Origin: Patescibacteria group bacterium | GTDB taxonomy: Bacteria > Patescibacteriota > Patescibacteriia > Magasanikbacterales > GWA2-37-8 | Length of the DNA stretch: 64,000 nucleotides | Assembly: GCA_041649475.1 (NCBI GenBank) | Contig: JBAZNA010000001.1 | Location: 392,612-456,611, forward strand | Direction: 5' to 3' | Shown: piece after piece, positions 15,763 through 39,662 of the stretch | How the letters are laid out: every line of letters starts with the position of its first letter | How positions within the stretch are numbered: the stretch's first letter is position 1 | Program-made: the position numbers and the translations under genes | The notes under the pieces: generated by a model | Seen by the model: the letters and a program-made list of their open reading frames with translations, nothing else | What the model was told of the DNA's origin: nothing | Database searches by the model: none

Positions 15763-18039
15763 ATGATAAAGGGAGGAAAATTATTAGTAACACTACTACT
15801 GGTGGTGGGGACCGCTATTTTTGTTGTATCTCAAGCCAAAGCTTCCATAACCGACGGCACCATTGACCCCAACCATAAATATGCCTGGAGTTCAAAAATT
15901 GGCTGGATAAATTTTGGCGCCACCAACGGAAATGTTCGCATAACAGACACAGCCATCACCGGCTATGCCTGGAGCCAGGAATACGGTTGGATAAATTTGA
16001 GCCCGACCATGAGCGGGGTAAAAAACACTTCCGAAGGAGTTTTGTCCGGCTACGCCTGGGGTGAAAATATCGGCTGGATAAATTTTGCGGGCATAACAAT
16101 TAACAGTACCGGAGTTTTTCAAGGCCAGGCCATTGGCGGAGATAATTCCGGAACAATAAATTTTTCTTGCGCGAACTGTTCGGTTGAAACCGATTGGATA
16201 CCGGCCAGCGCGCGTCCAAATCCAAACCCGCCGGGCGGCACCCCTTTGCCTCCGGGCTCGGGAAATCCACCCACTTCGCCGTTTTCAATAACCATAAATA
16301 ACGGCAGTCCTTTAACCAATTCCACTACCGTACAAATTATCTTAAAGGGTGGAAATGATTCCAGCTATGTTTTTCTTTCCGATGATCCAGGGTTTATAAA
16401 CAACACCTATCGTTTGATTTTTATACCCGGCCAGACATCCACCGGTACGCCGTTTGTACTCTCAAACGACAATCCGGGTTTAAAAAATATTTACGCGAAA
16501 TTTTGTACGCAGTGGGGCCAGTGCAGTGAACTGATTTCAAACTCAATTGTTTTTGCGCCGACGCCAATTGTTCCGCCGGGTCAACAACCGCCACCAACCC
16601 AGCCGCCGGGTCAACAACATCCGCCCGCCGGCACAACCAGCACCACGCCCGCCGGCCAGATTTTTCAAGAATTGGGAAATTTGTTAAGTTCAATTCTTTC
16701 TGATGTTTTTAGTCCAAAAATGCCGGTTTTCAAGGTGCCGACCATTTCTTTGTCTAAGGTCTACAGCCAACTCAAACTCTGGGTGCCGTATTTGTTCAGG
16801 ACGCCGTCAATTATCCAGCCGAAAATTCCGATTGAGCGTTTTGTGGCTAAGATTACGCCAATTTCCATGAGAGGCGTGTGGGATTATCTTGACCCCAGAC
16901 CAATTCACGAATTTGTGTTTGCGCCTTTGCCAAAAGAATTTTTGGCGCTGGAAGCCAAGTTTCCGGCTGTGGAAAAAACATTTAACGATGTCGGCATCAA
17001 ACGCATGAAGGATGTGGAAAAATTAAAAACTGTGCAGATGTATCTGCCCAGTTTGACCCAGGCAGTAATGCCGGCGGCCAGCGGTACGATGTTGGCAGTT
17101 GACATAATGAACCAGATGAAAGGGGTGCCCTTAAGCGAACTGCCGACATATCTGAAAGAAAAAATTCCTTCGGATATAATTTTCGCGCGCACCGGCGGTC
17201 AATTGGTTGATTTTAAAGTGGCATTGTCTTTAAATAAATCCGGTAACCCGGAACAAAAAATTTCAACGATTTCCAACAAGCCACTGCACTTAACGATCAG
17301 ACCGGACAAGCCGGTAAAAAGCGTAGTGGGCTATTTGATGTTTAGATCAGCCAAGGCGCAAGCCAGAACGGAAATGAATTTGAAAGATTTAGTGGCTTCG
17401 GCATTTTTTGCGGAGCCGGTTTTCGCCAGCACGCAAGATGTGCCGGTGCCCACCGAAGAGAAATTGGTTTTAATGCAGTTTGATTATCTGCCGGATAAAT
17501 CCGACCCGGGCCTTTTTACTGCCGATATAATTTCTCCAATACCGGCCGGCGAATATGAAATCGTCACGGTCATGAACTATCAGGACCCGTCTTTTGGCTC
17601 AAAAATGGTGCGTTTGATTACCGTGGTTGATCCGGAGGGCTATGTTTTTGAGAAAATAGGGGATAAGGAGTTGCGCATTCCGGGCGCGATTGCCACTTTG
17701 TTTTTTTACAATCCGGACACGAAAAATTACCAGCAGTGGCCGGCAAAAGATTTCCAACAGGAAAATCCGCAGGTTACGGGTTTGGCCGGCACTTACTCAT
17801 ACCTCGTTCCGGGCGGGATGTATTATTTAACGGTTTCAGCTCCGGGTTACGAGCCGTATTCAGGCAAACCGTTTTCGGTTGAGAGCGGCTCCGGCGTGCA
17901 CTTAAATGTTGAACTCAAGACCAAATATTGGTGGTTAAAAAATATTGATTGGAAGACCGCGCTTCTGGTAGCCGTGGCCTTGCTGTTGGCATACAATTTT
18001 TACAAAGACAAAAAAAATAAAAATAAACAAACTAATTAA
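15763..18039 (+). CDS. Secreted, C-terminally membrane-anchored repeat protein (GYAW...GWINF repeats, Pro/Gln-rich linker)
   Basis: N-terminal signal peptide (LLVVGTAIFVVSQAKA). At least four repeats of the form [Y/S]AWS....IGWINF. Linker PPGQQPPPTQPPGQQHPPAG. C-terminal TM helix ALLVAVALLLAYNFY followed by a Lys-rich tail. Confidence 0.6.
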   Translation: MIKGGKLLVTLLLVVGTAIFVVSQAKASITDGTIDPNHKYAWSSKIGWINFGATNGNVRITDTAITGYAWSQEYGWINLSPTMSGVKNTSEGVLSGYAWGENIGWINFAGITINSTGVFQGQAIGGDNSGTINFSCANCSVETDWIPASARPNPNPPGGTPLPPGSGNPPTSPFSITINNGSPLTNSTTVQIILKGGNDSSYVFLSDDPGFINNTYRLIFIPGQTSTGTPFVLSNDNPGLKNIYAKFCTQWGQCSELISNSIVFAPTPIVPPGQQPPPTQPPGQQHPPAGTTSTTPAGQIFQELGNLLSSILSDVFSPKMPVFKVPTISLSKVYSQLKLWVPYLFRTPSIIQPKIPIERFVAKITPISMRGVWDYLDPRPIHEFVFAPLPKEFLALEAKFPAVEKTFNDVGIKRMKDVEKLKTVQMYLPSLTQAVMPAASGTMLAVDIMNQMKGVPLSELPTYLKEKIPSDIIFARTGGQLVDFKVALSLNKSGNPEQKISTISNKPLHLTIRPDKPVKSVVGYLMFRSAKAQARTEMNLKDLVASAFFAEPVFASTQDVPVPTEEKLVLMQFDYLPDKSDPGLFTADIISPIPAGEYEIVTVMNYQDPSFGSKMVRLITVVDPEGYVFEKIGDKELRIPGAIATLFFYNPDTKNYQQWPAKDFQQENPQVTGLAGTYSYLVPGGMYYLTVSAPGYEPYSGKPFSVESGSGVHLNVELKTKYWWLKNIDWKTALLVAVALLLAYNFYKDKKNKNKQTN

Positions 18040-18045
18040 TATCGT

Positions 18046-18408
18046 ATGAAGTCAAAAATATTTTGGGGGCTGATCATCTTAATTCTACTCGCGAGTAATG
18101 TGTTCTTGGGACTAATGTATTACAACGCGTCCAAAGAGCTTGAAGGCAGCCGGGACACGGTGGCGACACAACGCTACAATGGCCAGGTGCTGAATTTTTT
18201 GAAGATGTTTATCAAGCAGGTGATCAAATCCAAGACAGAGATTGATTTTGATACCCGCTTACAACTTGAAAATTCAGTACGTGGCCTTAATGACCCGGAG
18301 ATTCTGGCGCAATGGCAGAAGTTCGTTAATAGCACTACTCAAGATGAAGCGCAGGCAAATGTTAAAGATTTGCTTGAGTTGTTGGTTGGTAAAATCTATC
18401 TCAAATAA
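18046..18408 (+). CDS. Small membrane-anchored hypothetical protein (120 aa)
   Basis: N-terminal TM helix IFWGLIILILLASNVFLGLMYY; ORF-only call. Confidence 0.4.
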   Translation: MKSKIFWGLIILILLASNVFLGLMYYNASKELEGSRDTVATQRYNGQVLNFLKMFIKQVIKSKTEIDFDTRLQLENSVRGLNDPEILAQWQKFVNSTTQDEAQANVKDLLELLVGKIYLK

Positions 18409-18474: not shown

Positions 18475-21400
18475 ATGCTTGTCACTATGGACAACGGAGA
18501 GAGGTATAAAAAATTCTCCAAAATATTAACTGGTGCTTCTTTAATAGTGGGCATATTTATGGCCCTCTATTATTTTGTTTATCCAGTTTTAGCCAATCCG
18601 CCGGGCAGTCCGTACGCGCCGGGCGCAACGCTTGATCCGGGTTGTTCTCCCGGAGATCCGAATTGCACGGTTTATCCACCGCTTACCACCACCCTTACCA
18701 CCTCCACCGCCATAACAATGGGCACGAGCACCTTGAATTTTGGCACCAGCACACTGTTTATAGACGCATACAACACCAGAGTCGGCATTGGCACTGCAAA
18801 CCCGACCTATACCTTGCATGTGGTGGGAAATACAAATTTGGGGGGAGATGTCACCACTACTGGCAATTTATATATTGCCGGAGTTACGAATTTTGGACAG
18901 ACCGTCATTACCAATCTTAATGTCACTTCTGTCACTTCCACCAATCTGTACATTTCAGGCCTGGCTAGTTTTAACACTATTGCCTCGGGCACCTGGGCCG
19001 GCAGTATTATTGCCAATACCCATGGCGGCACCGGACAAAATAGTTCGGGCTGGACAGGGTTTGCCTATGTAAACAATGGCACGTGGACAACTTCTACGAT
19101 AACAACCGGCACCGTTTCCGGTTTGCCTACTTTCAATGCCGGTACTGCAGGATGGATTCCGTATTATGCCGGTGCGACTTCAACACTGACTCCGACCTCG
19201 GCGATTTTTATCGCGGCAGATGGAAAAGTGGGGATAAATTCCACCAGTCCTATAGCGCAGTTCGCCATTAATCAGATGGCAGGCTCTGCCACTGACGCCG
19301 CTTTATTTGATGTTTCTTCTTCTACCGGGGGTAGTATGCTTCATGTTTCGGCGAATGGAAATGTTGGGGTTGGAACGGTGAGTCCGGCGGCAAATTTGTC
19401 AGTTATTTCAAATTTACGTATTTTCCGTCCTGGTTATGAAACAACAGCTTACGCGGAGTTTATAAGAAATCCTACCGGAGGTTTCATTTATTCAAGTAAT
19501 GCTTTATATGTCGGCGGGACAAATACTAAAACTTCGCTTGGCGGTGGTTCAATCGGAGGAATTGTCCAGGGTATATTTAATTCCGCGTCCAACCAGACAG
19601 CGGTGGATATACCAATCACGTTTTCTCCCGGAAGCGGCACGCCTACAGACATCGCTTTAAATATTAATCCGATTATCAATTGGGGTGGAACTCCGGGCGC
19701 GGGTTCGTATGAGGCGCTAAAGATAGCCGTTACAGAAACTTCGCTTCCCACCGGAAATAATTATTTGATAAGAGCTAGCGCGGGTGCGGCCGGAACAACG
19801 GATAGATTTGTAGTGACAAATAATGGTTATGTGGGGATTGGGACATCTTCTCCTGTTGGAGCATTATCTCTCGCCTCTGGTCAGGTGTTTGTTCCGGATG
19901 GAGCGGCAGCTACTCCATCATATTCTTTTGTTGGTGAACAAAATACTGGTTTTTATCGCCCCACGTCCGGATTATTAACGGTAGCTGTAAGGAATGCCCA
20001 GATAGCTGCCTTTAATGGTCAGGCGGGGACGAATTATGGTTTAGTGCTTGGAGGGACAAAATCTCTACAATGGAATGTTGATGATAATCCTGCAACTGGT
20101 TATAATGTTGACACGGCTTTGGCAAGAAGCGCGGTTGGAATGCTTGAAATAAATAATAGTAATTCAGGACAGTATAGAGATTTAATCCTAAGAAATTTGT
20201 TTGCTACAAGTAGTGTTGGCATCAACAGTTCATCTCCTATCGCCAAATTAGGAGTACAAGGTTCTGTAACCAATGGTAGTTTGCCCCTTTTAGACATCGC
20301 CTCTTCCACCGGGACCAGCTTGCTTCGTGTAACATCGGGCGGGAATGTGGGGGTTGGAACGGCGAGTCCTGGGTATAAAATGGATGTTAATTTGGGTTTG
20401 TTTGCCAGTAATGATACGTTTGGATATAACATTTATGGAAATGCAGGAAATGCTGTCGGTTATGCGGGTTATAACTTGCAATTAGATAATACAACAGGAA
20501 ATACTTCCGGTTATGTGAGATTAGCAAGAACACCTAGTACCGCTTACCTAGGGCTGGAAATCGGTTCACAATCACGTGATGGTATAAGGTTTTTAACAAA
20601 TACAATTACACCTGTTGAGGTAATGCGTATAACAAGTGCTGGCAACGTCGGTATCAACACCACCTCTCCCGCTTGGAAATTATCAGTAGCCGGTGATATC
20701 AACACCACCGGCACTTACAGGATAAATGACACACAAATTGCTTTAACTAACTTGGGTGACACTTCGCTTCCTGCACCCGTTGCCAATGACTGTCTAACTT
20801 ATAACGGTTCTTTCTGGGTGGCTGGCGCGTGCACTTCGCTTTCTGCCGGGCAGAGCGTGGACTATTATATTAATGATCAACTGTCGGCTGTTTCCACAAC
20901 TCTTCATTTATTAGAAAGAGCACCAATCACAGCAACCGAAGTGAGTGATGTTGTCAGTGTTCCGGCTGGAACTACGACTACGATTGATGCCTATATTTCG
21001 TCTTCTACGATAGGCGCGACGCAGGTGGATGCCGGAGCTTGGACATTTTCCGTCTTTGCGTCGTCAACCGGAGGAGCGGGACAGCAGACCATTGTGATAG
21101 AGGTCTATACTATTTCTGTTACAGGCACTACTCAATTGTTGTTTAGTGTCAGGACCGCGGATATTACCCAGACCACCCCCACCTTGATTGATGTTGAAAC
21201 AGTCCAGCCGGCTTTTCAGCTTGCTTCTTCAACCGACAGATTGTATGTGATTTTTAAAGGTTCTAACACTGGGGGGACAGCCCGAAATATTGGTTATACC
21301 GAAAATGGCACATCCAGATATACTCATTTTCATACGCCATTATTAACCAGACATAATAATTTAGCAGGAATTCAGGGCGGTTCCACAGCTGATCAGTATT

Positions 21401-24400
21401 ATCATCTCACCGCTGCCGAATACGCGGGCACTGGTTCGGGTATTTTTGTAAAACAAACTTCTCCGACTTTTTTGACTAATATTTCAATTGGCGGTGGCAC
21501 CGCTACCACAACTATCTATGGCAGCGCAACTTCTACCTTTCCGTATGGCGCGACGTTTGCGACTACAGGAGGAAGTGTGGGGATTGGAACATCAACCCCA
21601 ACTATGCCTCTGCATGTTTATTCTTCTACGGCAGGAGTTTGGGGAAACCCCACTAATTTAGCAATTTTGGAGCAAGCTAGTGCTGATGCCAACCCTTTCC
21701 TCGTCTTAAGAAGAACCAACACTGCTTATAATGACAGTGCGGGCGGCGGAATAACCGTACAAGAAGGAAGACCTGATGGCAGTACACTTGCAACTTTGGG
21801 TCAATTAAGGTTTGCTCAAGACGACAACTTTGCCGCAACTCCAAAGACCTCATTTATTTTGAATCTGAACAATGGTAGCGCTTTAACTGAAGTTTTGAGA
21901 GTTAAAGGAAATGGAAGTATTGGGATAAATTCTACTTCTCCTATCGCCAAATTAGGAATACAAGGTTCTGTGACTAACGGCAGTTTGCCGCTTCTAGACA
22001 TCGCCTCTTCCACTGGTTCTAGTTTGCTTCGGGTTTTGGCGAATGGGAATGTAGCTTTGTCTTTGGGGTCATACCTTTGTTTTGATGGAAGCGGCTGTTC
22101 GGCGGGCATAAATTATACCGGAGGAGGAGCTATGCAGTTTAATGGCTCTAACATGATATTCTATAGTAGTAATATTGATGTTCAGGGTAATGCAATTTAT
22201 AACAGTGGTTCTGGAAACGGCGGAGGCATTTATATAAACGATAATGTCGGTATCGGCACCTCCACTCCCGACGCTCGCCTCACGGTTTTGTCCGCCACCA
22301 TCGCTACCTCCTCTAACGCCCTCACAGTTTACAACGCCAGTTCAACAAAACTTTTTAAAATCGCGGACAGTGGAGATGTTTCTTTTGCCAACGACGGCCT
22401 GTATTATGAGGCGTCAAGTTCGGTTTTATACGCAAACAGCATTGAAACCGGCGCGATGAATTTTGATGAAGATGCCGGACAAGTGACATGGGTGAATCTT
22501 CCAATCACCACCACCACAGCCGGGTTGGTTGAAAGTTATAGCGCGCAGGTGGGTGATAATAATATATTAACAGTATACGGTGTAACAGATGGCGCCGGTG
22601 GAGTTTCACAATTACGCGTTGGCATAAATACCAGCACTCCATTATCTGATTTGGATGTATTTGGCAGTATGGTTTTATCCGGCTCAAACAGATATCTAAA
22701 CTTCGGCAATACCACCGGCACCACCGGTTATGGTATTTATGATAATGGGGGAGTCATGCAATTTAAAAATTCAAGTGGCGCGTGGACAAATATTTCCACT
22801 TCAACTGTTGCCTATGGCACAGCCGGGTATATTCCATATTATGCGACAACCGGTAATGCACTTACCGCCACTTCGGCTGTGTTTATCAAAACAGATGGAA
22901 AAGTGGGGATTGGGACGACTTCTCCCAGTGCGAAGTTACAGATTACTCCAAATGCTAATACTACCGTTGGATTGATTGTGCAGGGAGACAATAATCAAAC
23001 TGCAGATATTCAGCAATGGCAAACCAGTACTGGTACACTCCTGGCGTCAATCATAGGTTCCGGATCTTATCAGGGCGGCTGGCTTTTTTATGGGCTAAAT
23101 AATTATATAGATGCTTCTAATTACTCTAGGTTAAGGATATCACCTAATGGTAATGAATACCGTTTAATTACTGAATCTGCGGGGAGTGGTACCGCGAGAG
23201 ATTTAAGTTTGGTAGCAGACACAGGAAGGGCTCTATACTTTGGTGCTAATGGGACAGCTTATCAAGCATACCTAAACGCTCTTGGTAATTTTATTGTTAA
23301 TGGCGGAAAACTCGGTGTTAGTACCAGTACCCCAATCGCAAAATTAGGAGTGCAAGGTCTAGCCACTGAAGGCAGCTTGCCATTGTTAGACATCGCCTCT
23401 TCCACTGGCTCCAGTTTACTGCGAGTAACATCAGGAGGAAATGTGGGGATTGGGACGGCGAGTCCGGATACGACATTACACGTAAATGGAAATATAACAT
23501 TAGGAACAGGATCAAGTTCAAACGATCATCTTATATTTAACTACATTTCAGGGTTGGGAGAAGATTACGCAAGAATTAGGTTGGGAGCTAGTGGATACGA
23601 GCGTGTGAAATTAAGTCTTGGCATTGATCCTTTGGCTACCGGGCGTGGTCTTTTCAAAATAAGTACGGGTGATGGGGGGTCAGCTCCCACTGAAAGATTT
23701 AGAATAACCCCGAGTGGCTATATTGGTATAAATAGTTCTACACCAATGGCTCAGCTCGCCGTTCAGGGGTATGCTACTTCCACTCCTCTTTTAGACATCG
23801 CCTCTTCCACTGGCTCCAGTTTACTGCGAGTAACATCAGGAGGAAATGTGGGGATTGGAACGGAGAGTCCTTATGCACCCCTTCAAGTGGGAGCAGGCAT
23901 ACCATTGTATTCCACCGGACAACTTGATGTGTGGCAAGCAAGTAAGCCGGTCACTAGTATTGGTAATGTGAATATTTATTCAAATGATTCTGCGACAATA
24001 AACACTGGTGGGAGTATTGGTTTTGGTGGAGCCAATGGGAGTAACACGTATGTCTTTGGAAAAGTAGCCGGGCGTTTAGAAAATGCATCAGGTTATGCTG
24101 GCTATCTTCAATTTTCAACAACTCTTGCTAGTTCTGAAATTTCGGAAAAAATGAGGATAACAAGTGCTGGTAACGTCGGCATCGGCACCACCAGCCCTTA
24201 CGCCCGACTAAGCATAACGAGCGCCGGTATAACCAGTTCCACCCTCGCTTTTGCAGTTGACAATGCCAGTTCCACTCAACTGATGAGGATAGATGACGCC
24301 GGCAACATTTCTATGGGCGGGGATGGTTTTTATTACGACGCTTCAACCACTGTTTCGCATCTAAACGCCGAGTTTGGCAGTATGAGTTTTGACGAGGATG

Positions 24401-27033
24401 CGGGCATTGTCTCGTGGATAAATTTGCCGTTCGTTTCCACCACCATACCGCAAGGCACAATAATGTCTTATTCAGCGCAAATTAACAATACAGATATTTT
24501 AACAATTTATGGCGAGACCAACGGCTCGGGCGGTTTGCAGAATCCGCGGGTGGGTGTTGGCACCACCACGCCAAATGCAAAGCTTACTATTTATAGTGAT
24601 ACTATAGCCACTTCCTCTAATGCTCTCACCGTTTATAACACTTCCTCCACGCGGTTGTTAAAAGTTGCCGACAGTGGAGATATTAGTTTTGGAAATGCCG
24701 ATGGTTTGTATTATGAGGCCTCAAGTTCGGTTACATATGTAAACAGTTTGCAAACCGGCCCGCAGAGTTTTGACGAGGACGCGGGCATAGTTTCATGGAT
24801 CAATTTACCGATTACCACTACCACGGCCGGAATAGTGAACAGCTACAGCGCTCAAATTGCCAGTAATGATATTTTGACAATTTACGGTGAGACCGATGGA
24901 AGCGGAGGTATATTAAATACAAAAGTCGGTATCAACAGCAACACTCCGATGGCAACTTTGGCAGTGCAGGGTTACGCCAGCAGTTTGCCAATTTTTGACG
25001 TGGCTTCTTCAAGCGGTGCCAGCTTCTTGAGGGTCCTAGCGAATGGAAAAGTGGGGATTGGGACAACGACACCGAGGAATCCATTGGATGTGCGTGCAGT
25101 CGGGGGAACTGAAGAAGTTTTGAGAATTGGTGGTGGAAGTACGAACGATACTTATGGTTTCGGCGTGGGAGGTGGGTCACACGCGGCTGGAGGATATTTT
25201 GGCTTGTGGCATTTTAGCGCTACTACCAATGATTGGGATACAAACGTATTTTTAGTAACTCCAACAGGTGATTTTTATCCACAGCACAATATACAAATTG
25301 CTCCTCCCAGTGGATATACAAATGGAAACAATTTGGGATTATTTCCACAAACAGACGCCACACTAGAAAATGCCGTCTTGAAGTTATACGGTGCAAATGC
25401 ATTGCAGTTTGATGTGCGACCGTACACAGGTACTTGGGGAACGCAAGTTACTGCTATGTATATAAATGGTGTTGGCAACGTTGGCATCGCTACCACCACA
25501 CCTTTAGCTAGACTTACTATTGCCGGCGCTACCATCGCCACTTCCTCCAATGCTCTCACTGTCTATAACGCTTCAACCACCCGTTTATTTAAAGTTGCCG
25601 ATTCCGGTGACATCTCCATGGGTTCTGCGGACGGCTTCTACTATGAGGCATCCACCAGTATTTCATATGTCAATTCTCTACAAACCGGTGGCTTAAATTT
25701 TGATGATAATGCCGGTCTGGTAAGCTGGGTGGATATGACCATTGATAACAATGCTACCACTGGCACACCGGAAGGATACACTGCCTCGCTCAACGGCAAT
25801 CCGATGATACTTGTCTATGGCGACAGCGTCGGTGACGGCACAGTCACCAATATGACTGTCTCCATTGGCACCAGCACCACCAGCACTTACAAGCTATATA
25901 TAGACGCGGGTGGAAGCGCCAATGCTGGTTTAGGTGTCAACGGTTATATCAAATCATCCGGGTTTATCGCCGGCACCACCACTTTGGACTTGGCCGAAAC
26001 CTACCCGCTTGATCCGAATTGTTCGGCTCTTGGAAATTGTCCGGCAGTGGGCGATGTGGTTTGCGCGAACGAGAAAAATGTTAATATACAAATTCCGGAT
26101 CCGTCCAACCCATCTTCAACCATTGATACCGTAAACACTTTGTTTGTCATAGAAAAATGTTCAGCCACTTCAACCGACAACGCGATTGGTGTGGTTTCCG
26201 CCAATCCGGGCTTTGTCCTCGGTGGCTATGACTTGAACGATACTTTGAAATCCAAAAATCCGGGTTTGTATCCGTCAACTTATCAGCCGGTGGCCTTGTC
26301 CGGACGCGTGCCGGTTAATGTTTCACTGGAAAACGGTCCGATTAAAGCAGGGGACTTGCTTACTTCATCTGTCCAGCCGGGCGTGGCTGTGAAAGCGGTT
26401 GAACCGGGTCGTGTGATCGGTGTGGCTTTGGAATCTGCCAGCGCCACCAGCTCTGTGCCGACAATAAAAATGTTTGTCAACCCGCATTGGTCAGTTGGAT
26501 CGCTCACCGAAGAACAGATCAGTAACGAATTGCCTGACTTCAGTGTACAAGGAATATTAGACAGCTTCACTGTGGCTGTGGAAAATAGTTTACGGAAATT
26601 GGGAATGCTGTTAAAGAATGGCGTAGCCACAGTCAAACAATTATTTGCCGATAAAGTGCAGACCAATCAACTGTGCGTTGGCGCTACTTGCGTAAACGAA
26701 CAGCAATTGCAGGATTTATTAAACAAAACAAATACCCAGCCGGCCGCACCCGTGATTGAGACCCCGACAACAACTGAACCACCAGCTAGTACAACAACCC
26801 CTGTCGTTGAGACCCCGACAACAACCCCGCCAGTCACCGAACCTGTCGCGCCGGTCGTTGAGACCCCTCCGACTACAGAACCGGCTCCGCCAACAGAAGT
26901 AACTCCGCCACCGACCGAAGTAACTCCGCCACCAGCGGAACCAGCTCCAGTTGTGGTTGAACCCGCTCCAGCACCAGAACCTGCTCCTACTCCAGCCCCG
27001 GCCCCAGCTGATACCGGAACAGTAACTCCATAG
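18475..27033 (+). CDS. Giant (2852 aa) repetitive Thr/Gly/Ser-rich surface protein with N-terminal TM anchor and Pro/Thr/Glu-rich C-terminal tail
   Basis: A single uninterrupted ORF. N-terminal TM helix (ILTGASLIVGIFMALYYFVY). Dozens of GNVG[IV]GT.SP-type motifs. About five copies of a ...SSSPIAKLGVQGSVTNGSLPLLDIASSTGSSLLRVTSGGNVGIGT... module and about four copies of an ~100-aa ATIATSSNALTVYNASST...FDEDAGIVSWINLPITTTTAG... module. C-terminal Cys-containing domain, then a PTTTEPP.../APAPEPAPTPAP low-complexity tail. Confidence 0.7.
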   Translation: MLVTMDNGERYKKFSKILTGASLIVGIFMALYYFVYPVLANPPGSPYAPGATLDPGCSPGDPNCTVYPPLTTTLTTSTAITMGTSTLNFGTSTLFIDAYNTRVGIGTANPTYTLHVVGNTNLGGDVTTTGNLYIAGVTNFGQTVITNLNVTSVTSTNLYISGLASFNTIASGTWAGSIIANTHGGTGQNSSGWTGFAYVNNGTWTTSTITTGTVSGLPTFNAGTAGWIPYYAGATSTLTPTSAIFIAADGKVGINSTSPIAQFAINQMAGSATDAALFDVSSSTGGSMLHVSANGNVGVGTVSPAANLSVISNLRIFRPGYETTAYAEFIRNPTGGFIYSSNALYVGGTNTKTSLGGGSIGGIVQGIFNSASNQTAVDIPITFSPGSGTPTDIALNINPIINWGGTPGAGSYEALKIAVTETSLPTGNNYLIRASAGAAGTTDRFVVTNNGYVGIGTSSPVGALSLASGQVFVPDGAAATPSYSFVGEQNTGFYRPTSGLLTVAVRNAQIAAFNGQAGTNYGLVLGGTKSLQWNVDDNPATGYNVDTALARSAVGMLEINNSNSGQYRDLILRNLFATSSVGINSSSPIAKLGVQGSVTNGSLPLLDIASSTGTSLLRVTSGGNVGVGTASPGYKMDVNLGLFASNDTFGYNIYGNAGNAVGYAGYNLQLDNTTGNTSGYVRLARTPSTAYLGLEIGSQSRDGIRFLTNTITPVEVMRITSAGNVGINTTSPAWKLSVAGDINTTGTYRINDTQIALTNLGDTSLPAPVANDCLTYNGSFWVAGACTSLSAGQSVDYYINDQLSAVSTTLHLLERAPITATEVSDVVSVPAGTTTTIDAYISSSTIGATQVDAGAWTFSVFASSTGGAGQQTIVIEVYTISVTGTTQLLFSVRTADITQTTPTLIDVETVQPAFQLASSTDRLYVIFKGSNTGGTARNIGYTENGTSRYTHFHTPLLTRHNNLAGIQGGSTADQYYHLTAAEYAGTGSGIFVKQTSPTFLTNISIGGGTATTTIYGSATSTFPYGATFATTGGSVGIGTSTPTMPLHVYSSTAGVWGNPTNLAILEQASADANPFLVLRRTNTAYNDSAGGGITVQEGRPDGSTLATLGQLRFAQDDNFAATPKTSFILNLNNGSALTEVLRVKGNGSIGINSTSPIAKLGIQGSVTNGSLPLLDIASSTGSSLLRVLANGNVALSLGSYLCFDGSGCSAGINYTGGGAMQFNGSNMIFYSSNIDVQGNAIYNSGSGNGGGIYINDNVGIGTSTPDARLTVLSATIATSSNALTVYNASSTKLFKIADSGDVSFANDGLYYEASSSVLYANSIETGAMNFDEDAGQVTWVNLPITTTTAGLVESYSAQVGDNNILTVYGVTDGAGGVSQLRVGINTSTPLSDLDVFGSMVLSGSNRYLNFGNTTGTTGYGIYDNGGVMQFKNSSGAWTNISTSTVAYGTAGYIPYYATTGNALTATSAVFIKTDGKVGIGTTSPSAKLQITPNANTTVGLIVQGDNNQTADIQQWQTSTGTLLASIIGSGSYQGGWLFYGLNNYIDASNYSRLRISPNGNEYRLITESAGSGTARDLSLVADTGRALYFGANGTAYQAYLNALGNFIVNGGKLGVSTSTPIAKLGVQGLATEGSLPLLDIASSTGSSLLRVTSGGNVGIGTASPDTTLHVNGNITLGTGSSSNDHLIFNYISGLGEDYARIRLGASGYERVKLSLGIDPLATGRGLFKISTGDGGSAPTERFRITPSGYIGINSSTPMAQLAVQGYATSTPLLDIASSTGSSLLRVTSGGNVGIGTESPYAPLQVGAGIPLYSTGQLDVWQASKPVTSIGNVNIYSNDSATINTGGSIGFGGANGSNTYVFGKVAGRLENASGYAGYLQFSTTLASSEISEKMRITSAGNVGIGTTSPYARLSITSAGITSSTLAFAVDNASSTQLMRIDDAGNISMGGDGFYYDASTTVSHLNAEFGSMSFDEDAGIVSWINLPFVSTTIPQGTIMSYSAQINNTDILTIYGETNGSGGLQNPRVGVGTTTPNAKLTIYSDTIATSSNALTVYNTSSTRLLKVADSGDISFGNADGLYYEASSSVTYVNSLQTGPQSFDEDAGIVSWINLPITTTTAGIVNSYSAQIASNDILTIYGETDGSGGILNTKVGINSNTPMATLAVQGYASSLPIFDVASSSGASFLRVLANGKVGIGTTTPRNPLDVRAVGGTEEVLRIGGGSTNDTYGFGVGGGSHAAGGYFGLWHFSATTNDWDTNVFLVTPTGDFYPQHNIQIAPPSGYTNGNNLGLFPQTDATLENAVLKLYGANALQFDVRPYTGTWGTQVTAMYINGVGNVGIATTTPLARLTIAGATIATSSNALTVYNASTTRLFKVADSGDISMGSADGFYYEASTSISYVNSLQTGGLNFDDNAGLVSWVDMTIDNNATTGTPEGYTASLNGNPMILVYGDSVGDGTVTNMTVSIGTSTTSTYKLYIDAGGSANAGLGVNGYIKSSGFIAGTTTLDLAETYPLDPNCSALGNCPAVGDVVCANEKNVNIQIPDPSNPSSTIDTVNTLFVIEKCSATSTDNAIGVVSANPGFVLGGYDLNDTLKSKNPGLYPSTYQPVALSGRVPVNVSLENGPIKAGDLLTSSVQPGVAVKAVEPGRVIGVALESASATSSVPTIKMFVNPHWSVGSLTEEQISNELPDFSVQGILDSFTVAVENSLRKLGMLLKNGVATVKQLFADKVQTNQLCVGATCVNEQQLQDLLNKTNTQPAAPVIETPTTTEPPASTTTPVVETPTTTPPVTEPVAPVVETPPTTEPAPPTEVTPPPTEVTPPPAEPAPVVVEPAPAPEPAPTPAPAPADTGTVTP

Positions 27034-27034
27034 C

Positions 27035-29065
27035 ATGAAAAAATTATTCACAATTATTTCAATTTTTACCTTCATTCTAGCGATAGGCATAATTTTTGTG
27101 GTACTCAAGCCCGCCTCTGCCACAGTTCTCAACACACCTACCGTTAATTCCACCCTATCCAACGGCCTTGTCGGCTGGTGGACAATGGATGGAAAAGATT
27201 CCGATGCTGCAGCTTTTTTTGACAAAAGTGGAAGTGGAAATGTAGGAGTAAAAAACGGCGGAGTGGGAAGCGTTTCCGGTCAAATTGGGCAGGCGGCAGG
27301 TAGTTTTAATGGATCAAATTATCTTAATGCCGGTAATTCCTCCACTCTTAATCCTTCAATTATTACCATCACGGCGTGGATAAAAATAAAAACCATCGCC
27401 GCTAATAATAATACTATTTTAGTAAGAGGAGGCGCCGATTATTCGTTTGAAACAAATAATATCGGTGGTGGAAATGAAACATTGGCATTCTATCTCAACG
27501 GTTATAATGCTTTTCGTGGAAATACCGGTCTCACCAGAAATAAATGGAATTTTGTGGCCGTTTCTTATGATCCAAATTTGGCCAGTCAGAATATAAAGTT
27601 TTATCTTAATGGTGTTCCGGATGGAACCTCTGTAACCAGCAGTCCCATGGTTTCTACTGCCAATTATATTACTATTGGCGCCCGCGGTGGCGGTGCCGCT
27701 AATTTTAATTTGGATGACGTCCGTGTCTACAACCGCGCCCTATCCGCTTCCGAAATCCAGCAATTATATACACAAGGCGGTGGAAAGATAAATACAGCTG
27801 ATTTGGTTAATGCCCAGCTTCGCAACGGGCTGGTTGGTTGGTGGACAATGGATGGAAAGGATGGTTCAACCGACAAAAGCGGACACAATCTTAATGGAAC
27901 GAATACGGCGATAACAAAAGTGGCGGGCAAAATCGGCCAGGCGTATAAGTTTGATGGAACGACTTCTGCCGTAACTTTGCCGAGTTTTACCAATACCGCT
28001 GTAATCTCACGAACCGCTTGGATTAAAACAACCAGCACCGCTCAACAGGGCGTGTTAGACAATTATTCTAATGGCGCTGGAATATATTTTGGGTTAACCT
28101 CCGGAGTGGTATTTGTTTATCAAAATAGTGGGAACCCAACGGGAACAAGTGGAACTAGAACAGTCACTGATGGTAAATGGCATCATATCGCCTTTACTAA
28201 TGATGGGACAGTATCTTCATTTTATTTAGACGGGATCTTTGATAGATCTACACCGCAAACATTAACAGCGCAGGCAAGCGTTGGCAGTATTGGATATGGC
28301 AGCGGTGCCGGCGGTTTTGCCGGCTCATTAGATGATATTAGAGAATATAACCGTGTTTTGTCCGCCACCGAAATTCAAGAACTATACAAACAAGGCGGGG
28401 GAAAGATAAACAAAACAGATTTGATCACAGCGCAACTGCGCAACGGGCTTGTTGGTTATTGGACCATGGATGGGAAAGATATTGACGCCGGTTCGGTTTT
28501 TGATAAAAGCGGGTTAGGAAATATTGGCACCAGAACTGGTGGCACAAAACTTGTTTCAGGTAAAATTGGGCAGGCGATGAACTTTAATGCTTCTGATACG
28601 GGGGTCAGTGTTGCCGGGTCATCAATAACGGGAACAAACGTCAGTCGCTTTGCCTGGATTAAAATTAAAAATACGGACCCTGCTACTTGTGGCGGAGGCC
28701 GTTGTGAAATTATAGGTGGAGTAGGATCGCCGTACAGTTTGCTTGAGTGGGATGGAAGTTTGTCGGTTTATGGGTATGGGTTTGACACGCCTGCGTGGGT
28801 GAGTGTTGCAACCACCCTGGTCGCCAACAGATGGTATCATGTTGGTTTTACTTATGACGGAACTCGTTTACGGATTTTCAAAAATGGCGTGGATATTGGC
28901 GGTAATAATAATGCCCCCGGAGCTATGGCGGCGATGGGATCTTTGTCTGTCGGTTATCTAAGTGGTGTTGGCAGATATTTTAATGGTTCTATTGATGATG
29001 TGCGCGCTTACAGTCGCGCCCTGTCCGCCACCGAAGTAATGCAGTTATATAAAATGGGAAAATAA
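27035..29065 (+). CDS. Secreted triple LamG/ConA-like (Laminin_G_3-type) domain protein, paralog 1 of 6
   Basis: Signal peptide. Three ~220-aa units each start GLVGWWTMDGKD...DKSG.GN.G....G.......GKIGQA..F[DN]G and end LDDVRVYNRALSA.EIQQLY. Start codon is 2 nt after the giant ORF's stop. Confidence 0.75.
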   Translation: MKKLFTIISIFTFILAIGIIFVVLKPASATVLNTPTVNSTLSNGLVGWWTMDGKDSDAAAFFDKSGSGNVGVKNGGVGSVSGQIGQAAGSFNGSNYLNAGNSSTLNPSIITITAWIKIKTIAANNNTILVRGGADYSFETNNIGGGNETLAFYLNGYNAFRGNTGLTRNKWNFVAVSYDPNLASQNIKFYLNGVPDGTSVTSSPMVSTANYITIGARGGGAANFNLDDVRVYNRALSASEIQQLYTQGGGKINTADLVNAQLRNGLVGWWTMDGKDGSTDKSGHNLNGTNTAITKVAGKIGQAYKFDGTTSAVTLPSFTNTAVISRTAWIKTTSTAQQGVLDNYSNGAGIYFGLTSGVVFVYQNSGNPTGTSGTRTVTDGKWHHIAFTNDGTVSSFYLDGIFDRSTPQTLTAQASVGSIGYGSGAGGFAGSLDDIREYNRVLSATEIQELYKQGGGKINKTDLITAQLRNGLVGYWTMDGKDIDAGSVFDKSGLGNIGTRTGGTKLVSGKIGQAMNFNASDTGVSVAGSSITGTNVSRFAWIKIKNTDPATCGGGRCEIIGGVGSPYSLLEWDGSLSVYGYGFDTPAWVSVATTLVANRWYHVGFTYDGTRLRIFKNGVDIGGNNNAPGAMAAMGSLSVGYLSGVGRYFNGSIDDVRAYSRALSATEVMQLYKMGK

Positions 29066-29078
29066 TTAGCCGAACAGC

Positions 29079-31088
29079 ATGAAAAAAATAAGTTTTACAA
29101 TTTTGGGTTTATCCTTTCTCGCCGTTGGCCTATTGTTTTCGCACAGCGTTTTTTCCGCGACCGTGAACACATCGGGGAGTGTTTCTTTGCCCAATCTAAA
29201 TAAGGGTTTGGTGGGGTGGTGGACGTTTGATGGTAAAGATTTTCTTGATCCGACACATATAAAAGATACTTCCACAAATGGAAATATTGGCACCGTATCT
29301 AGTGGAATTAGAAAATTAACCGGGAAATTAGGGCAAGCGTTAAGTGGAAGTGGGACATCCGCCTGGGTTAATACCGGAAATGCGGCCTCCTTACAGGTTG
29401 ATACGGGAACCTTATCACTTTGGTTAAAGGGCAGTAGTTTAAATGATGATGGACAACATAATCTTATTCAGAAAGCTAACGCTTATGGCATTTTTATGTT
29501 GGGTGGATTGTTGGAAACATATAGCTGGGGAGGTAGTGCAGGATTTAGAAATACTAATATTAATATAAGAGATAATAAGTGGCACCATATTGTAATGTCA
29601 TTTCAAAGCGGAGTTACAAACGGAACGATATTTTATGTTGATGGTGTGCAGAGGTATTTAACAACTATTACAATTTCGGACCAGCTCGGCAGTTTTGATA
29701 TTGGAGGTGCAAATTTGCTTGGTTCTCTTGATGACGTCCGCGTCTACAGTCGTGTCTTGTCTGTTTCCGAAGTCCAACAACTATACAAACAAGGCGGGGG
29801 GGTGATAGTAAATAAACCTGAAACCGCCAAACCAAATTTAAATTCGGGATTGGTGGGGTGGTGGACTTTTGATGGAAAGGAAACAACCGCTGTAACCACA
29901 ACGGATAAAAGTAGAAATGGGATTGATGGAACGAGAATATCGGTTACTTCTGTTGCTGGCAAAATTGGCCAGGCGATGAAGTTTAACGGGACGACATCAA
30001 AAATAACTTTACCATCTTTTACGACTGGCGCCACACTTACACTGGCAGGGTGGTTTAAAACAACCAGCAATGACCAGCAATCAATTGTTAATAATTATTG
30101 GGACTCGAGGGGTTTGTATTTTGGCACAGTTGGCGGGAAGATGTTTTCTTACTCAACTTATAATAGTCCAGAAGCTTTTCAGGGTAATGCAATTATCAAA
30201 GACAATAAATGGCACCTTGGTGTTTATACGCTTAATGGGACTAAGGGTAGGTTTTATGTAGATGGAATTCTGGATAAAGAGATAGATCAAACAAGAACAA
30301 CGTTTACCTTGGCAGGGGCAATTGGTTTTGGTATGGGTTCACCGGATTATTTTAACGGTCTTATTGACGACGTTCGTGTCTACAACCGCGCTTTGTCCGC
30401 GCAGGAAGTCCAACAATTATACAAACAGGGCGGAGGCATCATAACCAGCAAATCCGAAACTACCAAGCCGAATTTGAATTCCGGTTTGGTTGGGCATTGG
30501 ACCTTTGACGGAAAAGATTGGGCTTCGCCCACGGTTGTATTGGACAAGAGTGTGAATAAAAATAATGGAACTCTAAACGGAGGGGTGACCAGAGTGAGTG
30601 GCAAATTTGGGCAGGCGATGAAGCTTAATGGAACAAATGGATTTATAACTTCAGCAACGACGGGATTTCCGACTTCCAGTGCCGCCATTTCTTTCTGGGC
30701 TAAAGTTGTTAATCCGGCTTCAAATACATCAATTATATATTCCGGTCCTCTTTTTAATATTCACTTTCCCGGGTGGGGAGGTATTTATTGGGACTTTGGT
30801 TCCACTGCTAGTGGAGGCAGGCTTTCTATTGCTTGGGATGCAAGCTGGACTAATAAATGGGCTTTTTGGACGTTTACTTCGCAAGACGGTGTCGGGCAAA
30901 AAATTTTTAGAAATGGAATAGTTATTGCGAGCGACAACGATACCGCCACTTCTTCATACGGCGCGACATTTTGGATAGGCGACCTGCCGGGCTATGATTC
31001 TTGGGATGGAACTCTGGATGATCTTCGCATCTACAACCGCGCCCTGTCCACTGCTGAAGTAACGCAGTTGTATAAAATGGGAAAATAA
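29079..31088 (+). CDS. Secreted triple LamG/ConA-like domain protein, paralog 2 of 6
   Basis: Signal peptide ending VFS/AT; same three-unit architecture and the same LDDVRVY.R.LS..EVQQLYKQGGG junction motifs. Confidence 0.75.
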   Translation: MKKISFTILGLSFLAVGLLFSHSVFSATVNTSGSVSLPNLNKGLVGWWTFDGKDFLDPTHIKDTSTNGNIGTVSSGIRKLTGKLGQALSGSGTSAWVNTGNAASLQVDTGTLSLWLKGSSLNDDGQHNLIQKANAYGIFMLGGLLETYSWGGSAGFRNTNINIRDNKWHHIVMSFQSGVTNGTIFYVDGVQRYLTTITISDQLGSFDIGGANLLGSLDDVRVYSRVLSVSEVQQLYKQGGGVIVNKPETAKPNLNSGLVGWWTFDGKETTAVTTTDKSRNGIDGTRISVTSVAGKIGQAMKFNGTTSKITLPSFTTGATLTLAGWFKTTSNDQQSIVNNYWDSRGLYFGTVGGKMFSYSTYNSPEAFQGNAIIKDNKWHLGVYTLNGTKGRFYVDGILDKEIDQTRTTFTLAGAIGFGMGSPDYFNGLIDDVRVYNRALSAQEVQQLYKQGGGIITSKSETTKPNLNSGLVGHWTFDGKDWASPTVVLDKSVNKNNGTLNGGVTRVSGKFGQAMKLNGTNGFITSATTGFPTSSAAISFWAKVVNPASNTSIIYSGPLFNIHFPGWGGIYWDFGSTASGGRLSIAWDASWTNKWAFWTFTSQDGVGQKIFRNGIVIASDNDTATSSYGATFWIGDLPGYDSWDGTLDDLRIYNRALSTAEVTQLYKMGK

Positions 31089-31089
31089 T

Positions 31090-33201
31090 ATGAAACGCGT
31101 TTTGTTCACAGTTCCTTTCTTACTGATAATACTCGCCGCGGGCTTGTTTTTGCGTTCCCGTTTTGCAAATGCCATGGTTGTCAATCAAAGCGTTAACAAT
31201 AGCAACTTAACTTTTGGTTTGGTGGGCTGGTGGACAATGGATGGAGCGGATACCAATGCCACACAGGCCTTGGATAAAAGCGGAAATGGAAATACCGGCG
31301 CTAGAAATGGCGGGACTAAACTTGTTTCGGGCAAAATTGGGCAGGCGATGAAGTTTGATGGGAGTAGCGGGAATATTGCTACAACTCCAGGTGTTACTGC
31401 CTTGACTTCTACATCTACTTTTACAATGTCGGTTTGGGTTTATTGGAATGATACCACCGCAAACGCACCCGCGACGGAATGTCCTTTTTATAATGGAGGC
31501 AGTTATGGTTTTTGTATAAATACTGGAGGTAATAAAATGGGTATTTATTATAATAATATTAACGCGACTGTTATAGTCGCGAGTGTATTACCAAAAAAAA
31601 CCTGGAGACATTATGTGATGACAAGGGCTAATGGGGTAAGTTCTTTGTATGAAAATGGAGTATTTAAGGACTCTCAAAATACCGATGTCCCCCAAGATGT
31701 GAATACGTTTTATGCCACGCATGTTGGAGAATTGTGGGCTGGTCCTACCTTTCCTTTTAACGGTTCAGTTGACGATGCCCGCATTTACTCCCGCGCCCTG
31801 TCCGCCACAGAGGTCCAGCAATTATACAAACTCGGCGGCGGAAAGATAAATCAAACTCCGACAATAAATTTAAGCAACGGCCTGGTGGGCTGGTGGACAA
31901 TGGATGGAGCGGATACAAACGCCACACAGGCGTTGGACAAATCAGGGTATAATAACACGGGGACAAGAACGACAGTTACACCAGTGGTAGGGGAAATAGG
32001 TCAGGCAATGAGTTTTAATGGGACGAGCGGATATGTTAATGTTCCAGTAAGTCAAGGATCTGTTTTGGATATAGCCACTAGTACATATTCGGTTTGGATT
32101 TATCCAACTGTGAGTGGTGTTGGAGCACAAAGTGGGCTTAGAGGTATAATCACTCGTGATTCTGGGAGTATGCCAATGGCGTGGAGATATGCCAATGATA
32201 ATATCATATTTAGCTTTAACGATACGATTATTATTACGGTCGCAGGTCCGGCTTTGAATAAATGGACCCTGGCTACTGTAACATACGATGGTACGAACGT
32301 GAGAATGTATTATAACGGCGTTCTTGTTGCTGGCCCCACCGCTTCTTCGCCGCCGGCTGTTTCAAGCGATCCTTTAAAAATTGGATTGGACTACACTGGT
32401 CAGTATAGTAGATATTTTAGTGGGAAAATGGATGACGTTCGCATCTACAGCCGCGCCCTGTCTGTCGCCGAAGTAAAAGCCCTGTATCAAATGTCACTTC
32501 CCGCAAAATCCAATTCCTCCAATGCGGGCAAAGGCGGATCTTTAACGGATTCCAGTTTGGTGGGCTGGTGGACTTTTGATGGCGCCTATACAAATACCAC
32601 ACAGGCCCTGGACAAAAGTAGAAATAGTAATACCGGTACCAGAACTGGTGGAACAAAACTTGTTTCAGGCAAACTCGGTCAGGCGATGAAGTTTGATGGG
32701 AGCAGTGCATACGTTGGAATGGCGGCTTCTGCGGGAAATAATTCAAGTGCCATAGGTCATACGTATGCCGTCTGGGTTTACAGAACAAAAGATTATAGCA
32801 GCGGACTCGGATGGGTTATAGAGAATGGCGGGACATGGGGGGAAGCGGGTGGCTCTAATTTGACGATCAGCGGAAACAGAATTTGTTATTATTATAACAA
32901 TGCTAATGTTTCGGTTTTAAGCAATAGTACCGTTTCAGCCAATGCCTGGCACCATATCGTGGTTTCGTATAATGCAAATACCAATAAAGCTACGTTTTAT
33001 TTGGATGGAAGAGCAGATGGAACCAGTGCAGCCCTGGGAAGCTGGGATGCTTCAACAAATTTAGTTAGAATCGGAAATTGGATTTCAGGAGGGGGTGGGC
33101 ATAATGAATACTATTTTGAAGGTTCCATTGACGACGCCCGCATCTATTCCCGCGCCCTCTCGGCCGCCGAAGTAATGCAGTTATATAAAATGGGAAAGTA
33201 A
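31090..33201 (+). CDS. Secreted triple LamG/ConA-like domain protein, paralog 3 of 6
   Basis: Signal peptide; three LamG-like units; start codon 2 nt after the previous stop. Confidence 0.75.
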   Translation: MKRVLFTVPFLLIILAAGLFLRSRFANAMVVNQSVNNSNLTFGLVGWWTMDGADTNATQALDKSGNGNTGARNGGTKLVSGKIGQAMKFDGSSGNIATTPGVTALTSTSTFTMSVWVYWNDTTANAPATECPFYNGGSYGFCINTGGNKMGIYYNNINATVIVASVLPKKTWRHYVMTRANGVSSLYENGVFKDSQNTDVPQDVNTFYATHVGELWAGPTFPFNGSVDDARIYSRALSATEVQQLYKLGGGKINQTPTINLSNGLVGWWTMDGADTNATQALDKSGYNNTGTRTTVTPVVGEIGQAMSFNGTSGYVNVPVSQGSVLDIATSTYSVWIYPTVSGVGAQSGLRGIITRDSGSMPMAWRYANDNIIFSFNDTIIITVAGPALNKWTLATVTYDGTNVRMYYNGVLVAGPTASSPPAVSSDPLKIGLDYTGQYSRYFSGKMDDVRIYSRALSVAEVKALYQMSLPAKSNSSNAGKGGSLTDSSLVGWWTFDGAYTNTTQALDKSRNSNTGTRTGGTKLVSGKLGQAMKFDGSSAYVGMAASAGNNSSAIGHTYAVWVYRTKDYSSGLGWVIENGGTWGEAGGSNLTISGNRICYYYNNANVSVLSNSTVSANAWHHIVVSYNANTNKATFYLDGRADGTSAALGSWDASTNLVRIGNWISGGGGHNEYYFEGSIDDARIYSRALSAAEVMQLYKMGK

Positions 33202-33204
33202 AAT

Positions 33205-35304: not shown

Positions 35305-35319
35305 ATCCATATAGATTTT

Positions 35320-37362: not shown

Positions 37363-37375
37363 GAGCTACGCCCAT

Positions 37376-39601: not shown

Positions 39602-39623
39602 GTTGAATTAAATTATCTTGAAG

Positions 39624-39662
39624 TAGCCAAGTTACATCGCTTGGCTATTTTATTTTTCTTTT
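39624..39662 (+). terminator. Strong rho-independent terminator closing the giant-protein/LamG gene block
   Basis: TAGCCAAG-ttacatcg-CTTGGCTA hairpin followed by TTTATTTTTCTTTT. Confidence 0.65.

Follow-up and report, generated by a model that had tools for sequence, protein, structure and literature searches.

How does a protein built like a phage tail fibre come to lie among the housekeeping genes of a patescibacterium, and what may it do there? The question is raised by a 64,000-nucleotide stretch of the Magasanikbacterales assembly GCA_041649475.1 (contig JBAZNA010000001.1, positions 392,612 to 456,611; hereafter the window, in whose numbering nucleotide positions are given), which holds a giant open reading frame (ORF) at 18475-27033 on the forward strand, with 2852 codons and zero internal stops. 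We consider it likely that this gene encodes a cellular, not a viral, protein: a cell-anchored surface fibre, phage-tail-fibre-like and trimeric, whose C-terminal 348 residues would be a self-removing folding helper of the phi29 type, and which is paired genetically with secreted lectins. The analysis observed homology, motif conservation, a predicted fold, synteny and mosaicism. The fibre is an uncharacterised variant of the type known from phages and from the mosaic adhesive trimeric (MAT) fibres of Bdellovibrio, not a new category, and it comes from a very large uncurated family. A first-pass annotation, made from the letters alone, had suggested a beta-helical or fibrous fold like that of phage tail fibres, a reading that stands; the N-terminal export signal, the conserved chromosomal synteny and the very large size of the family had escaped it.

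Residues 2505-2675 are read as an intramolecular chaperone of the phi29 gp12 / Peptidase_G2 type, with a predicted cleavage between L2504 and D2505, because of a profile match to gp12, the predicted fold and the conservation of a D-x-A-E motif. A search with the last ~290 structured residues gathered 29 relatives, mostly fragments, from Patescibacteria metagenomes (alignment A1). Compared with the PDB, the profile of this alignment (28 homologues) finds the phi29 pre-neck appendage protein gp12 (6QZ9, E 3.3e-9; 3SUC, 1.5e-8; 3GQH, 2e-6), in register with the gp12 processing site: DLAETYP, from aa (amino acid) 2505, falls on DFAEYFE. The released C-terminal fragment of gp12 (3GQH) begins at the D of DFAEYFE, and the 'pre-mature', uncleaved gp12 structure (3SUC) reads DFAQYFE, with Q replacing E. 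D and E occupy the aligned position in 310 of 336 domain instances (92%) from 207 sampled family proteins; some members are without DxAE, for example P0013 after its S74 domain. The Pfam model for the G2 domain (PF11962, Peptidase_G2, IMC autoproteolytic cleavage domain) gives no match for the whole protein or for its C-terminal 452 aa, even at E<=1, and matches 4 of the 28 close homologues with E down to 2e-5. The giant protein has no match to the S74 chaperone family (PF13884) and no SDxxxK motif.

An AlphaFold2 (AF2) model of the C-terminal part, built on A1, has an overall pLDDT of 78.3, with ~90 in most of aa 2505-2675 and 71-74 over model residues 121-140. In the extension that follows, scores are ~50-68 for the first helix and for the hairpins up to the Cys motif, and 81-93 for the last ~24 residues. 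Foldseek against the PDB returns 3SUC (probability 1.0, E 5e-3) and 3GQH (probability 0.94), with modest TM-scores of 0.3-0.6 for the matches of this model; the top matches are trimeric phage capsid cement or decoration proteins (BB1, Pam3, HFTV1, phi29 gp8.5 base). Against predicted viral structures (BFVD) there are 38 matches at E<=1e-3. The named ones are headed by a 'Preneck appendage protein' at rank 2 (E 8e-10) and by a 'Major tropism determinant N-terminal domain-containing protein'; named tail and tail-fibre proteins appear at E 7e-7 to 3.5e-4. The comparison with tail-fibre chaperones that the first-pass annotation had suggested thus leads, by profile and by fold, to the phi29 gp12 / Peptidase_G2 type. 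Its description of a switch to a Cys-containing domain followed by a Pro/Thr tail is also borne out: the 348 residues from DLAE onward hold 6 of the 12 Cys, and aa 2756-2852 are 34% Pro and 24% Thr. Similar low-complexity tails end most homologues. The conserved extension and the tail would, from their position, leave together with the chaperone; they might serve as a leash that holds the C-terminus close to the translocon until three chaperone domains have come together. A 168-aa antisense ORF (26719-27225, reverse strand) overlaps the Pro/Thr-rich tail and is most likely a by-product of low-complexity, stop-poor sequence.

The body of the protein is made of repeated units. Module A (~70 aa) is a double unit of two VG(I/V)(G/N)(T/S)xxPxxxL motifs either side of LPLLDIASSTGSSLLRVTSGGN and is present six times; module B (~130 aa) is present four times (Table 1). 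Pairs of modules align by self-BLASTP at E 1e-20 to 1e-51, and hidden Markov model (HMM) profiles find them at domain E 1e-31 to 1e-68. Both methods recover the two module families where the first-pass annotation had placed them; its five copies of module A hold, but a sixth, more diverged copy (copy 1 in Table 1) had been missed. At the DNA level the modules are dispersed, not tandem, and Tandem Repeats Finder reports trivial short arrays only, in the Pro/Thr tail. The arrangement of a B module, 'SIGTSTTSTYKLYIDA' and the chaperone recurs in P0030-P0033. The unique insert in the shaft has zero family matches, and related segments occur in P0106 and P0218 only.

What kind of fibre these modules would form is suggested by their recurring motif. 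There are 21 copies of the pattern [VIL][GA][IVLA][GNSA][TSLN]xx[PST]xxx[LFMVI], against 0.38 +/- 0.62 expected in the shuffled protein (maximum 4 in 2000 shuffles). Copies are spaced 42-45 residues apart within module A and 93-156 elsewhere, with one gap of 310 residues over the unique insert. The repeated VGIGT-type motif of the giant protein equals the published capping-loop consensus V-G-G/N-pi-x-x-P-x-x-x-L, which lies on the edges of trimeric beta-helix fibres and is known in the MAT family, phage T5 pb1, K1F endosialidase and MyRF (Caulton et al., 2024; PMC10769870). Two PHROG tail-fibre families match the protein, 9942 (E 3.3e-34, six stretches) and 18345 (E 5e-31, four stretches); these matches fall on the repeated shaft units and therefore indicate a shared building block, not orthology. 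Sequence comparison with the PDB yields a single chain, that of the Bdellovibrio fibre Bd2133 (8OND, E 0.005), to which HMMER aligns three GNVGIGT..P...L copies. Together the PHROG families, the Bd2133 match and the capping-loop consensus support the beta-helical or fibrous, phage-tail-fibre-like fold that had been proposed from the motif and composition.

At the other end, aa ~17-40 form the sole stretch of the protein with a Kyte-Doolittle hydropathy above 1.6 over 19 residues. This helix, the A|S/N-PP site and the PYAPGxTxDPxCxPGDxNCTV motif that follows are kept in P0030-P0034. The proximal domain behind them shares 38-69% identity with the N-termini of P0030-P0034 and P0139-P0142, and has a weak match to phrog_5906. 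Used as a query, aa 1-260 retrieved only four proteins, from metagenomes or Patescibacteria, and zero from Bdellovibrio, no MAT N-domain sequence being at hand for direct comparison. All 12 Cys group into six local pairs, as expected of an extracellular protein; an extracellular location is argued from these pairs, from the single N-terminal hydrophobic helix and from the neighbouring genes on both sides, whose products all have signal peptides or anchors.

The surroundings of the gene are those of a chromosome, with genes for MreB, DUF4012, a tRNA synthetase, an ABC transporter, thymidine kinase, SecA and SecDF. The order ABC transporter, thymidine kinase, CarboxypepD_reg-like envelope protein, ~120-aa membrane protein, fibre, triple-LamG protein, SecA and SecDF is conserved in a Candidatus Magasanikbacteria metagenome-assembled genome (MAG) (L001, GCA_016182085.1), in GCA_964619625.1 (L004) and in L002/L003, a single groundwater metagenome locus assembled twice, which is without the CarboxypepD_reg-like gene and ends before SecDF. 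Since the order from thymidine kinase through the envelope genes, fibre and LamG to SecA and SecDF is kept in L001-L004, with SecA ~77% identical, the fibre is taken to be cellular and not part of a prophage.

Conservation at this position is confined to the ends of the fibre. Its length there is 1639, 1669, 1825 or 2852 aa, and the giant fibre aligns with its positional orthologues only over aa ~1-260 (37-69% identity) and ~2334-2838 (41-61%). The middle differs with each orthologue: it is a beta-propeller/LVIVD or pectate-lyase-like region elsewhere and consists of A and B modules here, and the best matches of individual shaft segments are spread over different proteins. From this it follows that the ends are conserved and the shaft is mosaic. 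Whole-protein searches return 109 homologues at E<1e-10, nearly all of 1600-4900 aa and from Patescibacteria MAGs; about 40 have Peptidase_S74 at the C-terminus, and one bears the name 'tail fiber domain-containing protein'. Module A units are found in all 109, up to 24 per protein, and module B in 21.

The profile of the C-terminal cassette matches 29,149 clusters at E<=1e-3, and 6,167 at E<=1e-30, among 1.84 billion representatives. Genomes and viral contigs were searched with a trimmed 52-aa core of the cassette (A3). This core is found in at least 467 species genomes. Patescibacteria, many of them Saccharibacteria, make up most of the best 80, which also include Elusimicrobia and one Pseudobdellovibrionaceae MAG. 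Viral contigs yield 81 relatives, more distant (44-60%) than those of cellular Patescibacteria (60-81%). Of the 207 sampled proteins, 127 (e.g., P0049, P0054, P0046, P0069, P0052 and P0143-P0167) contain two or three G2-like domains in tandem, every one of which has a DxAE. In P0078 and P0138 a G2 core (DVAE) is followed by an S74 motif (SDERLK) and, behind that, by the shared C-terminal extension. The family is common, unnamed by Pfam and, within the literature searched, undescribed for Patescibacteria; no earlier description of tail-fibre-like giant proteins in this phylum was found there.

Several characterised systems resemble parts of the fibre. With phi29 gp12 (MEROPS G2 / PF11962) it shares, besides the profile homology and the D-x-A-E at the cleavage position, a beta-rich fold, and in both proteins the domain is C-terminal in a beta-structured fibre or spike. 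The two differ in that identity in the Foldseek alignment is ~16% and the Pfam model misses the domain of the giant fibre, which continues into a conserved extension of ~80 residues, with a Cys pair, and then a Pro/Thr tail of 97 residues. In addition, gp12 is a pectate-lyase-like spike that folds in the cytoplasm, whereas the giant fibre has a 2500-residue mosaic body, is cell-encoded and is predicted to be exported. The Bdellovibrio bacteriovorus MAT fibres Bd2133 and Bd3182 (8OND, 8ONC) are likewise cell-encoded, signal-peptide-bearing and phage-like; they come from a bacterium that lives on other bacteria, their shafts are mosaic and their tips variable, and one subgroup has a self-cleaving chaperone (PMC10769870). 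The giant fibre has an N-terminal hydrophobic signal, a mosaic shaft and matching capping loops, from which a trimeric beta-helix is predicted here; the match is at motif level only (E 0.005). MAT fibres are ~1000 aa long, stand on a diderm surface and carry an S74 chaperone or none, so that the G2-type terminus of the giant fibre lies outside the described MAT ends. A G2-like core 69% identical over 48 residues is present in an uncultured Pseudobdellovibrionaceae, a Bdellovibrio-like MAG (L070, CAZWVK010000139.1), which hints, from sequence, that predatory bacteria too may bear fibres with a G2 chaperone, beyond the described S74 and non-S74 MATs.

Closer in phylum are the Patescibacteria giants with a C-terminal Peptidase_S74 ('tail fiber domain-containing protein'; e.g., P0078, P0035, P0036), which share the giant size and the module-A units (up to 24 per protein) and in some cases the downstream triple-LamG gene. 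The giant fibre is without the S74 domain, while several of these proteins carry a G2-like and an S74 domain in tandem. Viral fibres with a Ser-Lys chaperone (PMC4690869) offer a parallel in that a C-terminal chaperone nucleates a triple beta-helix and its removal then bares the binding tip; they are viral proteins, with a chaperone of another family and a Ser-Lys catalytic mechanism.

Table 1. Features of the giant fibre gene and its neighbours in the window
Feature	Position (nt)	Strand	Residues (aa)	Evidence
Two upstream envelope genes: 758-aa secreted, C-terminally anchored protein (15763-18039) and 120-aa membrane protein (18046-18408)	15763-18408	+		
N-terminal hydrophobic helix, Sec signal peptide or signal anchor, end VLA|NPP	18523-18594	+	~17-40	hydropathy, conservation
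Conserved N-terminal (proximal) domain, presumed envelope-attachment end	18595-19194	+	41-240	conservation
Module A copy 1, diverged double capping-loop unit	19180-19440	+	236-322	HMM E 4e-35
Module A copy 2	20182-20418	+	570-648	self-comparison, HMM
Unique insert, flanked by capping loops 310 residues apart, with Cys773/Cys786 pair	20740-21600	+	756-1042	
Module A copy 3, second capping loop degenerate	21856-22074	+	1128-1200	self-comparison, HMM
Module B copy 1	22282-22671	+	1270-1399	HMM E 1e-67
Module A copy 4, with conversion patch 23386-23465	23272-23514	+	1600-1680	
Module A copy 5, with conversion patch 23791-23870	23677-23919	+	1735-1815	
Module B copy 2	24211-24603	+	1913-2043	HMM
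Module B copy 3, copy used for structure model	24586-24978	+	2038-2168	
Module A copy 6	24892-25110	+	2140-2212	HMM
Module B copy 4, predicted distal tip of mature fibre, directly before chaperone	25516-25908	+	2348-2478	HMM
DLAE, predicted autocleavage site L2504|D2505	25987-25998	+	2505-2508	aligned to DFAE of phi29 gp12
Core of G2-type intramolecular chaperone (predicted)	25987-26499	+	2505-2675	profile, model, Foldseek
Conserved extension: helix, hairpins with LCVGATC (Cys2734/2739), helix	26500-26739	+		conserved columns in alignment A1
Pro/Thr/Glu/Ala-rich tail, 97 aa	26740-27030	+	2756-2852	composition; 18-21 nt short tandem repeats
Six tandem secreted-protein genes, three Laminin_G_3 domains each (18 LamG in total)	27035-39601	+		Pfam E 1e-56 to 1e-77
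Terminator-like hairpin, 14-pair stem then T-run, closing the putative operon	39619-39652	+		

The lectin-domain array noted at first pass next to the fibre is borne out as the six LamG ORFs of Table 1. Each of these paralogues has a signal peptide, and their mutual identity is 33-41%. The genes are tightly packed, with gaps of 1-15 nt, and 1 nt separates the fibre stop from the first LamG ATG; to judge from this layout, the fibre and the triple-LamG lectins are probably co-transcribed. The mechanical ORF start of the sixth gene, TTG 37289, overlaps the fifth gene; ATG 37376 is the likelier start, because the signal peptide begins there. The syntenic relatives have a single triple-LamG gene directly after the fibre (L001, 14931-17078; L002, 15494-17581; L004, 13050-15191), so that the gene is amplified from one to six in the window. 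The pair of fibre and triple-LamG gene also occurs, in a different context, beside a distant S74-type relative of 4613 aa (P0036), and a second fibre of the Magasanikbacteria MAG that contains L001 has no adjoining triple-LamG gene. An ORF6N-domain protein (40768-41196), of a KilA-N-related DNA-binding type that is often phage-associated, is encoded in a group of small unannotated ORFs that separates the lectin array from a glycosyltransferase gene.

Upstream, the two envelope genes have counterparts in L001 and L004 (54-59% identity), and L002 has the 120-aa protein only (66%). Besides a signal peptide and a C-terminal membrane helix, the 758-aa protein contains three 'YAWSxxxGWINF' repeats, a Pro-rich linker and a CarboxypepD_reg-like domain. 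In L002 (9147-9527; also in L003), two genes upstream of the orthologous fibre P0031, there is a bAvd / 23S_rRNA_IVP four-helix protein, an accessory of diversity-generating retroelements. Such a retroelement was considered and dropped: the scanned ORFs of the window give no reverse transcriptase (RT) match, the window has no pair of template and variable repeats, and none of the called genes of L002/L003 is recorded as belonging to an RT family.

The DNA of the repeats bears on how the gene has changed. Positions 23386-23453 and 23791-23858 are an exact repeat of 68 nt, and 78 of 80 nt are identical when it is extended to 23465/23870. The first-pass annotation had called ~70 nt here (23396-23465 and 23801-23870) identical; they are nearly so (68 of 70). 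Within the patch 68 of 69 aligned bases agree, against 78 of 186 (42%) in the protein-aligned flanks, and other module-A pairs use different codons at roughly 40-60% of identical-residue codons. The patch is a short (micro) gene-conversion tract between two old repeats: its sharp edges, the diverged flanks and the codon divergence among the other A copies indicate conversion, and of the two origins proposed earlier the recent duplication of a whole module falls away.

Could the length of the ORF or the number of repeats be an artefact of assembly? The architecture is repetitive, and no exact copy of the protein was found in the public collection. All other repeats in the gene and the window are, however, only 60-87% identical in DNA, which makes a collapse unlikely, and the sole exception, the 68-nt patch, is shorter than a read; the reading frame is intact and both protein ends match positional orthologues. 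We regard an artefact as the least probable of the alternatives, to the point of being almost negligible. Scarcely more credible is a tail fibre of a phage, prophage or tailocin lodged by chance in the chromosome, as might be supposed from the PHROG tail-fibre matches, the cassette relatives in 81 viral contigs and the ORF6N-domain gene at 40768. The scanned ORFs of the window include zero genes for a capsid, portal, terminase or tail; at its N-terminus the protein carries a signal for export; its position between housekeeping genes is kept in L001, L002 (of which L003 is the duplicate assembly) and L004; and the viral relatives are the more distant ones. A third alternative is a structural envelope fibre without partner recognition, which might act as a spacer, belong to an S-layer-like coat or contribute to the matrix of a biofilm or holdfast. 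It accords with a tip that has no identifiable receptor-binding domain and with the presence of module B within the shaft as well. We nevertheless hold it to be improbable: shaft and tip are fast-evolving and mosaic while SecA is 77% identical, and the fibre is conserved beside lectin genes that are amplified in the window. Rapid mosaic evolution and adjoining amplified lectins are both typical of recognition proteins.

The reading as a cell-anchored, self-processing adhesive fibre has weaknesses of its own. Pfam and NCBIfam give zero matches on the giant protein, whether searched whole or as five pieces. The N-terminal helix is predicted from sequence to be either cleaved or retained, which allows two modes of attachment, and the case for an adhesin is made by analogy and from the gene neighbourhood alone. 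AF2 modelling of individual modules, which had been proposed earlier, gave an all-beta monomer for module B copy 3 at medium confidence (pLDDT 72.9, pTM 0.39), but no significant fold match: the best in Foldseek is the Bd3182 fibre (E 0.1), then T5 tail tip and T4 gp34. In this model module B resembles an extended chain of a fibre more than a globular knob; a module-B profile has zero matches among PDB sequences. Release of the phi29 gp12 chaperone reportedly involves ATP, which is unavailable outside the cell. Finally, the top Foldseek matches of the C-terminal model are non-cleaving decoration proteins, so that the domain could be a permanent trimerization cap, as in phage cement or decoration proteins, with the Pro/Thr tail as a functional stalk on the mature fibre. 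The family members without DxAE, such as P0013, and the lack of extracellular ATP would fit such a cap. DxAE stands exactly at the gp12 cleavage position, however, in 92% of domains and in that of the giant fibre itself, and we think a permanent cap unlikely, if less so than a purely structural fibre.

How, then, might a cell-encoded, self-processing fibre be made and used? From its predicted features we infer trimerization, cleavage and a role in attachment, in the following sequence. The chain would pass through the Sec system by its N-terminal hydrophobic signal or anchor, and the conserved proximal domain of ~200 residues would hold it at the envelope. The chaperone (aa 2505-2675) would trimerize first and template the folding of the shaft from the C-terminus towards the N-terminus; some 2300 residues, with 21 capping-loop motifs and shuffled modules (A, B and unique inserts), would form the trimeric beta-structured shaft. 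The chaperone would then cut at L2504|D2505 through D-x-A-E and free the 348-residue fragment of chaperone, extension and Pro/Thr tail. Cleavage would bare the last B module, which would then form the distal tip of a fibre ~100 nm long, a length obtained by rough scaling from Bd2133 at 370 residues per ~145 A (PMC10769870). The fibre, probably co-transcribed with the secreted triple-LamG lectins, would most likely serve in the attachment of an episymbiont to, or its recognition of, a host cell or another surface. A bolder and doubtful extension of this scheme joins fibre and lectins in a two-part, phage-like recognition apparatus: ATP-free G2 self-cleavage outside the cell might bare a docking tip, the triple-LamG proteins might act as exchangeable receptor-binding subunits, and their amplification from one to six might broaden or switch the host range.

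Apart from type IV pili and a few unnamed adhesins, little is known of how the ultra-small Patescibacteria find host cells and attach to them (PMC11665869, PMC10633639). The analysis suggests that this phylum has a very large, uncurated family of giant phage-tail-fibre-like fibres. It identifies the triple-LamG lectins as a conserved genetic partner of the fibre and proposes a concrete, testable maturation step, cleavage at L|DLAE; the genomes that bear the cassette include those of Saccharibacteria, some of which are culturable and genetically tractable. The phi29-type (G2) chaperone would not be limited to phage spikes, being widespread, and often in tandem, on cell-encoded proteins with an export signal. 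For annotation, profiles of the cassette and of modules A and B would give a name to thousands of giant proteins now called 'hypothetical'.

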